DNA from: Eledone cirrhosa
Taxonomy: Eukaryota
DNA: 64,000 nucleotides
NCBI GenBank assembly: GCA_964016885.1
Contig: OZ024749.1
Location: forward strand, 23,188,001-23,252,000
Reading direction: 5' to 3'
Shown here: piece by piece, positions 857 to 44,285 of the stretch
Numbering within the stretch: the first letter of the stretch is position 1
How the letters are laid out: every line of letters begins with the position of its first letter
The notes under the pieces: generated by a model
What the model saw: the letters and a program-made list of their open reading frames with translations, nothing else
What the model was told of the DNA's origin: nothing
The model's database searches: none
Made by a program: the position numbers and the translations under genes

Positions 857-2955
857 TCACCTTAATCACTACCACCAACACCTCAAACGAAATGCGCGTC
901 ACTAGTTAATAAACGTTATGAAGACTTAACAAATTGTTGAGCACTCGATGTTTAGGTTCACATTAGTTGTGAGATGTAGAGATAGAGTGTATTATAATAA
1001 TACAAGAACTTGCCTAAGGCTTTCTTCACAATCTTAGAAAAAACTTCCCAGTCGCCCACAACTATCCTAATCTCATCAATAAAAATACCATTAAAATCTC
1101 TTACTCTACCACACCTAACATCGCGTACCATATATCTAGTAGTAATAAAAGGAAGATTAATAATTATTTCCAACTAATTAAATCGCAACAGGGGGTAAAT
1201 GTACATAGCACCCTAATACCAGAGAATTCTAGTAGCAATAACAGTAATAGCACTAATGAAATTCATAACAATCATTACCCTTATGCAATCCCTAACAACC
1301 ATGCATCTACACGTCATACTAACAGGCAAGCAACCAACCAGAATAACTGTAACTGTAGAACAAATAGAACTTGCCCCCGAGGTACAAATTGTTTAATCAA
1401 AGACCTCATTTTCTCATTCACAGTCAATACAAACATCTCTTCAAAAACATATGTCGGTTCTACTTCGAACTGCTTCAAGACGAGATATAACTCGCATCTC
1501 CACACTTTCAAAAATCGCAATCTAGCCCACTCCACATCTTTATTTAACTACCTACACTATCTGAAAACTAAAACTAGACATTACACACTTCAACGGGGAG
1601 TAATAGATAAGGCCGCATCGCATAAACCACCGAATAAATTATGTAACCACTGTCTTCTAGAGACTCGCACTATAATCTATTCTAAACTAAACCTCTTAAA
1701 TAGACAATCAGAAATTTTATCCATGTGCCAACACTACCACCGACACTCTTTCCACAACTTTAAACCTAGATGCTAGTATATAACAATGTCAGATCTGGAT
1801 TCTTCACCACCATTAACACTTCACCTCTAGGTTTTATCAGCATATATTTATCCTCACAGTATCACACTCTATGATCAGCTCATTTCTCTACTTACCTCCT
1901 ATTTATATCAATTCTTATACTCTACAATAACTATTAAGAACAAACATAAAGTTACCACCATTTAATATAACTACTATAGCTTACTTATATTTTATTCAGT
2001 AATGGGTAGATAGCAATATAACGAGACCTGTAATGTATTATAGGAAAATAGATTGTATTTAACATTGAATATATAAATAAATAGCATTATATAAAAGGAT
2101 TTCACTTATAACATAATGTATTGTATATTAGAACAAGGAATTTAACTAATTGGAGCAGTAAACAACTATACATTTTCTCTATTATATATATATGAATCGC
2201 TAATTACCTCTCTTTCACATTAGCTCCCATTAATATAGATCTCTATTTCACGTCCGGAAATTAAACCGTTAGACAGATCACTCTAGAACAACTCGAATCC
2301 TCGATAGGAGTGTCATAGGACCAATATACAATCCATAGTTGTAACTACTTATAAACATTCACTAAATATAACCAATGTAATGGAAAAGAAAACATTAATA
2401 TTAATACTCACAATACAAGCACATTTGAACATTACATCAACAATTGTCACACTACATCCACCATAACCTTCATAGAAAATACTTTTAATACACAAACATC
2501 TTTGTCTGTTTTATATGCTTGTAAACTTGTATTATATTATATGATACCATTGCCATACTGTAATATATATGCCTAGTACCATTGCTTGTTTCCTACCTAG
2601 CTATTATGTACATGCCTAACACACTTGCACTCTCTATACGCTTGCATATGTACTGCTAATGTCCTCGTTTTGCGAGTAACTTTCTGCCTTAATTCCTCTT
2701 TAATTATTATAATATTCTTTTGTAATCTTTGTCGCATCCACTGATACTGTCCTCAACATCTCCACTCTGTAAATATGACACTGTTGATGACAACATTAAT
2801 ATCTATGTATCTTTATAATTGTTCTGTGGAATAAGAAGTTACTTATATGTCTAAACTTTGCTAGTGCTCCGATTATTCTCCAAACGAAAGCTTGGAAGAA
2901 ACGATTGCCAGCAATAAAATGTTTTGAACATAGGTTTAATTATTCTGAAATTTAT
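857..2955 (+). mobile_element. 5'-truncated Penelope-like element (Naiad-type C-terminus) with an inverted tail fragment at 857-1000, lying between (TA)n tracts
   Basis: Coding remnant at ~1012-1776 followed by a long AT-rich 3' region. 857-1000 on the minus strand matches the element tail at 24950-25000 (ctctaca..gtgaaccta(a)aacatcgagtgctca). Confidence 0.75.
1012..1776 (+). pseudogene. PLE RT-thumb/linker plus GIY-YIG endonuclease remnant
   Basis: Manual translation: FPVAHNYPNLINKNTIKISYSTTPNI, then an open frame 1342-1776 NCNCRTNRTCPRGTNC...TYVGSTSNCFKTRYNSH...LCNHCLLE...LLNRQSEILSMCQH. It has no upstream ATG, so it is absent from the ORF track. Confidence 0.85.
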
Positions 2956-3000
2956 ATATATATATATATATATATATATATATATATATAAAAGAAAGTA

Positions 3001-3167
3001 CCGTATTTCCCGGCGTCGAAGGCGCTACTTTTTTCCTAAAATAAGTATAAAATATCTAACATACGTCCTGGAGGCCGAAGGTTGTTTATTATTTATTTCC
3101 AATTTTTGGTTGTCAAAATTAGGATAGGTCATCGAGGACGAAGCGTCTTGGGCGCCGGGAAATATAG
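3001..3167. mobile_element. MITE with ~26 bp imperfect TIRs (Tc1/mariner-pogo-like CCGTATTT end)
   Basis: ccgtatttcccggcgtcgaaggcgct ... agcgtcttgggcgccgggaaatatag, preceded by TA. Confidence 0.65.
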
Positions 3168-3374
3168 AAGATATTATTTTGTCGTTGTTTTTTTAATTAT
3201 TTTTCGTTTTAAAGGTGTTATTTCAGCCTCTTTGATATCTTTATTTATATTTTTGATGAGGCAGGTATTGTCTCTCGAAAAAGAGTATAGAAATTTAGTT
3301 AAGTAATTTAATTAGTATATTTGTCATATGTCTATTGTGTTTCGTTTTTATCTATTGATATTGTTATAATCATT

Positions 3375-3562
3375 CGGTGGATTGGCAGTATCGGTAGAGG
3401 GTCGGGCCCTATGCTTTCCAGCATAGTTACGTCCCTTTACGATCTGAGTTCAAATCCCGCCGAGGTTGACTTTGCCTTTCATCCTTACGGGGTCGATAAA
3501 ATAAAGTACCAGTAATACACTGAGTAATTGCTGGCCTTGTGCCTAAATTAGAAACAATTATT
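3375..3562 (+). mobile_element. tRNA-derived SINE family A
   Basis: A-box-like tggcagtatcggtagag, B-box gagttcaaatccc, central gcctttcatccttacggggtcgataaaataaagtaccag, tail gtgcctaaattagaaacaatta. About 20 copies in the window. Confidence 0.85.
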
Positions 3563-4559
3563 AAATATATAATATATGTATGTTACCCAATATATAATTT
3601 AAATTTATTTAGCATCTGTTAAATGTATATTGTAAATAAAACCTGACACACTCTTTAGTACTTGATACCTAATATTTAAAACTCGTTAAAATCATATTAT
3701 TTTTATATTCATTTGAATCCGCGCGATTTTATTTTATTTAATTTAATTTATTTTTATTTATTTCATTTTAATTTTATTAATTTATTTTAATTTATTTTTC
3801 TCACTTGTTTTTTAAGTGTCTCGAATAGTATTTAAAGAAGCATACTAATAATTATAATTAACGTTTGTTTGTTCAGGTCACTAAGCATAACACTTTCTCT
3901 GTTGTTGGTTTTCTTTCACGTTGTCTCTCTCTCTTTTCTCTCTCTCACACGCACACACACTTTATATATATATATATATATATATATATATATATATATA
4001 TATATATATATATATATATATATATATATATATATATATATCGCTCCCTGGATCTCTAACGATCTCTCTCCTTCCCTCTCAATCGCTTATTCAATGTCTC
4101 ACGCCCTATCTCTCTCCTGGGATTGTTCACTCCCCCCTCTCGCTTTAACCTTCTCCCAACTCTTCCCTCTCCATATCTCCTCTACAGCGAAATGGATTGC
4201 ATGCAAGGAGGAAATGAAAATAGAAGCCAGCGAAATTGGACAAACATAGAACTGGAGATGATGATCAAAGGATGGAGCTTGGTTGATGGGTCGCTGCCAA
4301 CCAAAATAATTAAAGGCCTAGAAGAACCATGGCTTTCTATGGACTTTGCCACAAATAGAGAGGAAAAAGAGAGAATTTGAGAGGGCTTATGCCTTCATAG
4401 CGCACAAAGGGCCTTGCTAATCTGTGTCCTCAAGGAGAAAGAAGACAGAGAAATAGAAAAGGAAGAAAATATAAACACTGACCACAAATGGTCTACGGAG
4501 TCACAGAAGGATTTGAGAACAACTTGAGAACTGCCTTACATAGCTGTTACAACACTATG

Positions 4560-43084: not shown

Positions 43085-43245
43085 GAATTGACGTCAGTTC
43101 TAGACAGGTACCGTTTTTATCGACCACGAAAGGATTCAAGGCAAAGGTGACTCCGGTGGGATTTGAACTCAGAGAGCACTGAGCCTAAATGATACCGCAA
43201 TCATGCTTACCAACGTTCTAATGAGTCTGCCAATTCTCAACCACA
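43085..43245 (-). mobile_element. Diverged SINE family A-related copy
   Basis: ggtaccgtttttatcgacc..gaaaggattcaaggcaaaggtgactccggtgggatttgaactc. Confidence 0.7.
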
Positions 43246-43499
43246 TACATTTATTACAACACTGAAAATAAACATAATAAAACGCTGCTTTCCATCGTTA
43301 TTTTGTCCGTAGAGTTCTGATATTATATACTACCAAGGCAGGATGGAAAGATTGCCATTCCGTTCAAACTTTGCATTACTTTCGTTATCTAACTTTTCTT
43401 TCACTTTGATTTATTGTTGGAGGGTTGGGGATTTCCAACATGTAAACGTTGCAGTAACTTTACTTGATTGAGTGCGTAGCTGGAATACCAGAGAGCCGA

Positions 43500-43828
43500 T
43501 CCAGATGGTTAGAACATTGGGCTTGCAATTGAGAGGTTGTGAGTTCGATTCGCAGACCGGGTGATACATTGTGTCCTTGAGCAAAACACTTTATTTCACG
43601 TTGCTCCAGTTTACTCAGCTGTAGAAATGACTTGCGATGCTACTGGTGCCAAGCTGTATCGGTCATTGCCTTTCCCGCGGACAACATTGGTGGCGTGGAG
43701 AGGGGAGAGTGGTATGCATGGGCGACTGCTGGTCTTCGACAAAACAAACTTTTCCCAGGCTTGTGCCTCGAAGGGAAACTTTCTAGGTGCAAAACCATGG
43801 TCATTTGTGACCGATAGTGGCCTTCAGA
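43500..43828 (+). mobile_element. tRNA-derived SINE family B
   Basis: ggttagaacattgg..gtgagttcgattc..tgtgtccttgagcaaaacactttatttcacg..ccatggtcatttgtgaccg. Homologous to 46493-46800. Confidence 0.8.
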
Positions 43829-44060
43829 TCCAGGTAGATCCGCTACTTTTCCGAATTGGGAGATCGTAGCTCAGATATTACGGGCATGTGGTTAGAATGT
43901 ATAAGAAAAGGATCACTGGACAAATCATACGGTCAAAACCAACTAGCAGATAGACATCCATGAGCACGGGTGGTCTCTCTTAGGGATTCAGCCAGATCAA
44001 TTGAAGACGGTTGCTTCTGAAAGGACTCGCCGGAAGGAATGTTTGAGGGCTCTGCAAAGA
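43829..44060 (+). mobile_element. RTE-clade LINE 3' fragment
   Basis: Translation LLFRIGRS*LRYYGHVVRM...I...KP resembles the RTE C-terminal LRW.GHV.RM motif. Confidence 0.6.
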
Positions 44061-44078
44061 ATGTTTGTTAAGATTCCA

Positions 44079-44285
44079 GGTGGACCATAACACCAGAGTA
44101 CTCGATACTTAGGGCATTAGAGTGGTTAATATGAAAAGAGTCAGGACCCCGACGGCTGAGCTCCAGCCGTTTCAACATCTAGATTATTTCAACTTGGCTT
44201 AGTTCGGATCTAGTCGTCGAAACGGCCGGAGCTCAGCCGTCGGGGTACTGACTCTTTTCATATTACCCACACTCTACTACCCTAA
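44079..44285. mobile_element. Half-hammerhead fold-back family copy
   Basis: gaccccgacggctgagctccagccgtttc ... gaaacggccggagctcagccgtcggggta. Confidence 0.75.

Follow-up and report, generated by a model that had tools for sequence, protein, structure and literature searches.

The 64,000-nucleotide (nt) stretch of the Eledone cirrhosa genome analyzed here (contig OZ024749.1, positions 23,188,001 to 23,252,000; hereafter the window) contains insertions in (TA)n runs near whose ends the hexamer GAGTRC recurs. In a previous sequence-only reading, this hexamer was described as a linear signal located 40–60 nt from the (TA)n junction and shared by otherwise unrelated, non-autonomous elements carrying a hammerhead ribozyme. 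GAGTRC makes up only half of the signal, namely the 3' arm of a hairpin with a bulge. This hairpin, almost certainly a real and conserved paired element, is found in the leaders of intact Hydra-clade Penelope-like elements (PLEs) and apparently represents an undescribed cis-element of this known retroelement clade. As judged from the positions at which insertions end, it probably serves as an RNA docking site causing the reverse transcriptase (RT) to start approximately 8 nt upstream.

Within the window, which resembles animal DNA (36% GC, rich in microsatellites), the hairpin takes the form ACTC-[stem-loop]-TN-GAGTNC and is intact at nine elements. ACTC pairs with GAGT, and the inner stem, whose sequence is family-specific, is followed by a 2-nt bulge. 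All ten GAGTRC sites and both variants reported previously were recovered at their positions and grouped into families A (19582, 21323, 34457, 44098), B (28785, 41493), C (941, 24993), D (18367), E (42301) and F (32055). The earlier count of at least six families was thus confirmed, and a seventh one (X, at 35277 on the minus strand) had been missed. A hairpin pattern search returned 11 matches, namely the nine elements and two overlapping matches in a 19-bp tandem repeat; when three inner pairs were demanded, 9 matches were obtained, while 200 shuffles averaged 1.2 and never exceeded 4. Bulges of 0, 1, 3 or 4 nt were also tried in the window and matched mostly simple repeats. Since the pattern was shaped after seeing these same data, a test outside the window was needed. 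The features concerned are the following:

886–934, plus strand: hammerhead 3' half and about 35 nt of Hydra leader, with read loose ends at 897 and 934
940–988, minus strand: family C hairpin with a long loop and decayed first inner pairs, within an inverted piece of Hydra 5' leader (938–1006)
1007–1776, plus strand: 5'-truncated, decayed Hydra-clade PLE open reading frame (ORF) with CxCX5C linker, GIY-YIG region, CxxC and CxH
18255–18424, no strand: head-to-head inverted insertion D, short arm on the left, long (tailed) arm on the right
18346–18373, plus strand: family D hairpin with an inner stem-loop almost identical to the second hairpin in an intact Hydra element (locus L031, minus strand)
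19306–19474, plus strand: Hydra ORF scrap (19306–19413) fused to a family A hammerhead half, ending at a short site before (TA)n at 19475
19511–19632, no strand: family A insertion composed of an inverted short arm, the hairpin 3' arm (GAGTAC at 19582) and a tail; the hairpin 5' arm is missing
21322–21348, minus strand: family A hairpin in inverted insertion 21273–21456 (short plus long arm)
24947–24999, plus strand: family C hairpin with a long loop, 46 nt before (TA)n
28784–28805, minus strand: family B hairpin, preceded by a complete type I hammerhead core (28849–28871)
29293–29470, minus strand: family F short arm, stopping 7 nt before the hairpin start of the long copy
31978–32061, plus strand: family F hairpin with a 71-nt inner part, a 5-bp inner stem and a GAGTTC arm
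34437–34463, plus strand: family A hairpin in inverted insertion 34316–34508
35276–35300, minus strand: family X hairpin in a 631-nt partial tandem (34679–35415)
41491–41499, plus strand: family B hairpin 3' arm; the 5' arm has decayed
42285–42307, plus strand: family E hairpin in inverted insertion 42068–42365
44097–44123, minus strand: family A hairpin; the inverted arm 44109–44284 ends inside the hairpin, and the tail is not followed by a TA run

For the outside test, an alignment of 46 proteins was used as query, and 77 metagenome loci were fetched (best 80 of 456 confirmed), complemented by a further 20 loci from host-contaminated genome bins. Outside the window, the hairpin has the form GCTC...TTGAGCACT and the consensus GCTC-[stem-loop]-TY-GAGCACT. 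Its presence downstream of the hammerhead and upstream of the ATG in leaders of intact Hydra-clade elements bears out the earlier suggestion that the motif should occur in the pseudo-long terminal repeats (pLTRs) of autonomous PLEs. These leaders are arranged in the order hammerhead, hairpin 1 (52–77 nt past the cut site), hairpin 2 (115–150 nt past it) and, after another 20–65 nt, the ATG. By the strict pattern, two hairpins were recognized in 16 of the 21 full leaders (cut site to ATG) and one in the other five, four of which show a degenerate second copy by eye. The 21 leaders represent 16 groups at 75% identity, with a median identity of 58%. Leaders contained 11.1 hairpins per kb, as against 0.05 in sense ORFs, 0.08 in antisense ORFs and none in antisense leaders. 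Furthermore, the hairpin can be seen by eye in consensus sequences from File S7 of PMC8557442, namely Hydra-2_Amil, Hydra-2_Ajap and Hydra-1_Ajap (twice, before the ATG), while only variant forms are seen in Hydra-1_Crog and Hydra-1_Obim of the same file. In a control set of 30 loci retrieved with the Poseidon-type protein of the window, no hairpin was detected within 200 nt of hammerheads beside Poseidon-like ORFs; the sole match (L143) lies beyond a TA run and matches the hairpin of a neighbouring Hydra family. Scans of viral contigs revealed no relatives. Rfam searches of 14 Hydra loci yielded only Hammerhead_1 and low-score microRNA (miRNA) matches and left the hairpin unmatched; in the window, the matches listed (150 of 296) were sub-threshold ones to miRNAs or small RNAs, largely over simple repeats.

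Covariation was evaluated for 61 distinct hairpins from outside the window, the arms of which had been located by sequence only. Inner pair 1 is kept in 60 of 61 hairpins (CG 40, TA 19, AT 1; shuffled mean 45.6, maximum 53), pair 2 in 43 of 56 (22.8 when shuffled) and pair 3 in 33 of 43 (17.9). In alignment A2, 97.1% of the cells are paired, as compared with 22.7–55.0% in slid controls, and two-sided changes number 53 versus 16.0 after shuffling. Moreover, a covariance model (R1) was built from 57 of the 61 outside hairpins, leaving out the longest loops and near-duplicates and excluding the window. In the window, its top ranks were 44098, 21323, 34457 and 42301 (E<0.01), and it also placed 28785, 18367 and 35277 within the top ten. 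The outer stem reads GCTC/GAGC in 54 outside hairpins, TCTC/GAGA in five and GCAC/GTGC in two; in the window it is ACTC/GAGT. Since the outer arm GAGCACT occurs in 50 of the 61 outside hairpins and is conserved beyond what pairing needs, it is likely to be read base-specifically. The inner stem contains few G-U pairs; accordingly, pairing alone cannot mark RNA over DNA as the acting form.

In order to locate the ends of insertions, (TA)n junctions were compared with read-through homologues, giving 47 junction groups outside the window, 5' joints and nested or unrelated repeats among them. TA-targeting ends of Neptune-type elements mostly lacked a read-through homologue. Among the 18 outside hammerhead-bearing junctions with a read-through homologue, 14 lie 3–11 nt upstream of a hairpin, an interval into which about 10% of leader positions would fall by chance. 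Considering all 20 hairpin-adjacent junctions, the mode is 8 nt, and exactly 8 nt were measured in 11 cases. Eight window junctions (19475, 19510, 21457, 24279, 29292, 34315, 34678 and 42068) are likewise positioned 5–9 nt before ACTC, among them the copies of family X ending at 34678 and 24279, both of which stop 9 nt before the X hairpin; the family D junction lies 14 nt before its hairpin. Two types of ends result. At a short end, (TA)n is located just 5' of hairpin 1, which is lost, and at a long end it is located just 5' of hairpin 2, so that hairpin 1 is kept as a 'tail'. From leader geometry, arm 1 and the long end are expected to be 33–49 nt apart, and distances of 37–47 nt were found in further outside loci.

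Because ends set at hairpin 2 keep hairpin 1, the previously reported distance of 40–60 nt to (TA)n reflects copy 1 being carried along. Most window sites indeed lie 46–65 nt from the run (58 nt at 18367, 46 at 24993, 52 at 34457, 47 at 41493 and 65 at 42301 on the plus strand; 46 at 28785, 56 at 21323, 53 at the GAGTTC of 32055), with 89 nt at 941 and a short TATATA followed by (GA)n at 19582. The constant spacing, however, is the one of 7–8 nt upstream of the hairpin, not the one downstream. Insertion into (TA)n was confirmed for the window elements with the exception of 44098, where the TA run is absent at the tail end. The typical PLE insertion structure (5'-truncated, with inverted arms and a one-sided tail) was observed for D, two A copies, E, F and five outside loci. 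All five outside head-to-head insertions bearing the hairpin combine one short with one long arm, and the same pairing was found in the window for D, two A copies and E, as well as for F with its arms 2.3 kb apart.

Since insertions end about 8 bases before either hairpin, the hairpin likely directs the RT start site. The PLE protein would nick (TA)n and bind the hairpin, the nicked 3' end would anneal to a small number of U/A bases located about 8 nt 5' of the hairpin, and copying would proceed away from the hairpin, so that the copy which set the start is lost. Priming of both target strands, one per hairpin, might then give rise to inverted arms with a one-sided tail. Of the earlier claim, the shared cis-signal of (TA)n-targeting hammerhead PLEs is retained, which the RT or endonuclease would recognize. 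More tentatively, and with the balance of probability against it, each of the two hairpins may dock one protomer of a PLE protein dimer, which would prime both strands of a cut (TA)n at once; the copy at 19511–19632, whose arms do not overlap, resembles a product of twin priming. If so, a single short RNA module would account for both the tail and the inverted pLTRs, and ORF-less derivatives would have to be tandem or circular, since each round loses its priming hairpin. For inverted junctions, self-priming on an antisense template is the explanation favoured in PMC3846280 and may apply here as well.

Several observations weigh against docking as the function of the hairpin, or reduce the force of the data given above. 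Four of the 18 junctions are exceptions: two are two ends of one family without a hairpin, one belongs to another repeat, and in the fourth, a long end, the supposed 'read-through' sequence belongs to a neighbouring element. Moreover, junctions share families and the script preferred hairpin-bearing read-through sequences, so that the nominal p is overstated. The copy at 44098 lacks a clean short-plus-long arrangement. Most ends and the RNA have 2–8 nt of TA in common, in contrast to Poseidon, for which a non-homologous start was reported. The sequences examined included no intact autonomous element from this genome, and the joint from 1006 to 938 is the sole indication of a second hairpin in this species. 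ACTC/GAGT occurs in none of the 61 outside hairpins, and the window tails are longer (46–65 nt). The outer-stem variants were selected, as pairing was a search requirement, and the shuffle and slid-partner controls ignore relatedness and descent. Model R1 misses 941, 19582, 24993, 32055 and 41493, which have long loops or lost arms. Finally, the hairpin taken by itself is only weakly stable (z between -1.9 and +0.5 over 12 single-strand folds), and the minimum-energy structures of window families A, B and D are different ones.

The shared TA nucleotides are also the starting point of a rather unlikely alternative, according to which the hairpin is indeed bound by protein as RNA, but in the service of ribonucleoprotein assembly, hammerhead folding or translation, whereas the ends are set separately by the (TA)n primer annealing to UA-rich patches preceding each duplicated unit. 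It is supported by the strong A/U bias of the 14 nt preceding the hairpin and by the proximity of hairpin 2 to the ATG. However, the leaders are AU-rich throughout, yet more than half of the hairpin-adjacent junctions fall at exactly 8 nt, and some junctions share just 1–2 nt with the TA run (L145/L127, L029). Somewhat less likely still is that the hairpin acts as DNA, the GIY-YIG domain recognizing it in a cDNA or resolution intermediate and cutting about 8 nt away to define the ends. The tail has been ascribed to endonuclease-mediated resolution (PMC8557442), a tail requirement for endonuclease recognition of Penelope DNA is cited in PMC11167929, and the scarcity of G-U pairs fits DNA as well as RNA. 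Against this, the genomic ends of one reconstituted PLE coincide with RT start sites (PMC11167929), and the hairpin is restricted to the sense strand just downstream of the ribozyme.

The original proposal of a linear GAGTRC word marking unrelated non-autonomous elements is highly improbable. Conservation of the outer arm far beyond pairing speaks for it, and 7 of 106 TA flanks in the window carry GAGTRC 40–70 nt before the run; with related flanks merged, 5 of 71 groups compare with 0.62 expected (nominal p 4e-4). GAGTRC nevertheless ranks only 18th when all 36,864 motifs built in the same way are compared, and the enrichment thus fails correction for the motif search. In addition, many insertions stop before the motif and therefore lack GAGTRC, and the spacing from motif to end is loose (37 to 65 nt), whereas the upstream spacing is tight. 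Covariation of the inner stem, leader position and end mapping largely refute this version. That the matches arose by chance in an AT-rich, repeat-dense window can practically be discounted even though the hexamer count equals expectation (32 versus 31.95 in shuffles) and its positional rank is unremarkable, since the independently built model R1 and the structured pattern select the same sites. Chance is thereby refuted as regards A, B, D, E and X, while families C and F were identified by the pattern search alone.

Regarding clade membership, the ORF at 1018–1776 carries CNCRTNRTC, CNHC and CQH, corresponding to the CxCX5C, CxxC and CxH motifs of the Hydra clade. Its C-terminal GIY-YIG region is closest to Hydra proteins: in a profile of 45 relatives with the window row left out, it scores 141 bits over 252 aa; the same profile gives 89 bits for a 786-aa Neptune-type ORF and 29 bits for the Poseidon-type ORF of the window. 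A Pfam search returned no match for this ORF. The ORFs of fetched locus L031 show RWR and DKT; the Hydra copy of the window is 5'-truncated. Same-species reads show other copies to extend the ORF upstream of 1007, which is therefore a breakpoint, and reads of other copies run from 886–934 directly into the sequence that is inverted here at 938–1006. Since this leader half continues into the inverted piece, the hairpin at 941 is most likely part of the leader of element 1007–1776 itself, and it does not represent an element 3' tail as assumed before.

The elements of the window, which had been regarded as unrelated, carry homologous pLTR ends of Hydra families, and two of the elements are joined to pieces of Hydra ORFs; they are therefore neither unrelated nor all demonstrably non-autonomous. 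We infer that they are short 5'-truncated or inverted products of the process outlined above within an ACTC/GAGT sub-lineage. Type I hammerheads, carried by many of the fetched loci, had been proposed to lie upstream of most motifs. Full cores are present in families B (28849–28871) and E (in the inverted arm), but this is not general: only 3' halves were found in A, F and at 886–900, none is clear in D, and by eye the GAAAC..NUH half alone is kept in A, F and the second B copy. In the tails of families A–F, a second small hairpin 5–15 nt before the long end was noticed in most cases by eye and partly in folds; as judged by eye, the B copies differ from each other in this hairpin by a compensatory change.

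Other identities were considered, and most of them were rejected. Non-LTR retrozymes, which consist of ORF-less tandem units each having a complete hammerhead, do not fit: families A–F show no tandem arrangement, that of X is partial and its hammerhead doubtful, and the arrays that would qualify lack the hairpin. Miniature inverted-repeat or other DNA transposons with terminal inverted repeats do not fit, as the arms are unequal by 60–93 nt and hold ribozyme halves. With respect to a tRNA-derived head of short interspersed elements (SINEs), ARAGORN called no tRNA in the window, although decayed heads can escape it. A protein-coding reading of the motif (Glu-Tyr codons) was ruled out because the motif sits upstream of the ATG in intact elements, and the GAGTAC at 51025 lies on the wrong strand relative to its element. 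The GAGTGA array units, previously counted as members, were likewise discarded: the unit at 17261 has neither 5' arm nor hairpin, and junction comparison, model R1 and the pattern search all found the arrays devoid of it.

Further repeats were recorded in the window. Tandem hammerhead arrays of 474-nt and 442-nt units (16828–18249, 38524–41111, 50504–50866) are retrozyme-like, with an inverted first arm and without the Hydra hairpin. Positions 45844–46005 and approximately 50990–51163 (minus strand) are related hammerhead remnants, the first of which ends about 10 nt before an ACTC of the second (by eye); the second lacks the 3' arm, and the two possibly represent an eighth family. A 5'-truncated Poseidon-like PLE (32176–34346, minus strand), whose near-intact frame gives RT and GIY-YIG matches (33057–34346), ends in (TA)n and includes a hammerhead-like core of variant type close to 32340; the hairpin is absent from its 3' end region. 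Moreover, a family of about 180 nt, without a tRNA call, occurs in approximately 15 copies, often as inverted pairs (e.g., 55980–56361), at 3355–3555, 7328–7538, 14343–14838, 36736–37412, 49149–49788, 53674–53860 and 55465–57415. Decayed elements of the long interspersed element (LINE) type with matches to APE endonuclease, RT and zf-RVT are located at 7699–9018 (minus strand) and 10113–13141 (plus strand).

Outside the window, the tails of two TA-targeting elements (L041:2853-2994, L122:972-1456) share a GGATCC-centred palindrome followed by TGTGASTACAT; L041 adjoins a Neptune-type ORF, and the motif is possibly that clade's own signal. Pairs of hammerhead PLE ends are arranged tail to tail in one TA run at L031:2597-2620, L109 and L035:2605-2636. 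The minus strand of L035 contains a 281-nt ORF-less tandem unit with Rfam hammerheads and hairpins. Several prokaryotic bins (G001-G005, loci L078-L096) contain animal PLE-rich contigs, an apparent host contamination.

The literature already covers Hydra elements and their hammerheads, the targeting of (TA)n, tails, and the derivation of retrozymes from PLEs. A description of the hairpin was not found in literature searches or in Rfam; subscription journals, Repbase reports or bioRxiv supplements could hold one. Hydra-clade PLEs have been characterized by a C-terminal endonuclease with a CxCX5C linker, a hammerhead in the pLTR and (TA)n insertion (PMC8557442), and linker and target are shared with the window elements, the hammerhead in part. 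Sections 6, 11, 15 and 20 of that paper do not mention the hairpin, its duplication or the end spacing, and the ACTC/GAGT form of the window is distinct; start-site choice and the formation of tails and inverted ends are named there as open. The Poseidon RT of Anolis has two internal start sites flanking the tail and requires RNA 3' of them, as the hairpin arrangement would; its protein extends both target strands, and a dimer is predicted (PMC11167929). In both PMC3846280 and PMC11167929, the tail is an optional extension on one arm of an inverted insertion, as found here. The binding motif is undefined in the parts of these two studies concerned, having been bracketed within 172 nt only in the latter, and Poseidon-type loci lack the hairpin. 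The Hydra tail, by contrast, comprises about 55–95 nt, is non-coding, and each end is aligned with its own hairpin, unlike in Poseidon. Non-LTR retrozymes (10.64898/2026.07.22.740005) resemble the present elements in being hammerhead-bearing, pLTR-derived and ORF-less repeats, to which the tandem unit of L035 comes close; they differ in that the majority of copies in the window are solitary insertions, truncated or inverted, instead of arrays, and the true hammerhead arrays of the window lack the hairpin.

A docking function would account for the one-sided 'tail' of Penelope elements, and the less probable dimer reading, if true, would make the hairpin a portable signal for site-directed internal reverse transcription. 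With a covarying element of 25–40 nt and a fixed end spacing of 8 nt, start-site choice becomes testable by a few point mutations, and the hairpin can be used as a marker to annotate Hydra ends and ORF-less passengers in repeat-rich animal genomes. PLEs are the retroelements closest to telomerase. RNA stems recruiting an RT are known from the 3' tails of LINEs and SINEs, from R2 and from hepadnaviruses, whose epsilon is a bulged stem near the priming site, and in twin priming of L1 both target strands are primed, giving inversions. No sequence kinship with these stems is claimed. In contrast to the stems of LINEs/SINEs, R2 and epsilon, the Hydra hairpin is present twice, is situated on the 3' side of an internal start and escapes copying from the start that it would set.

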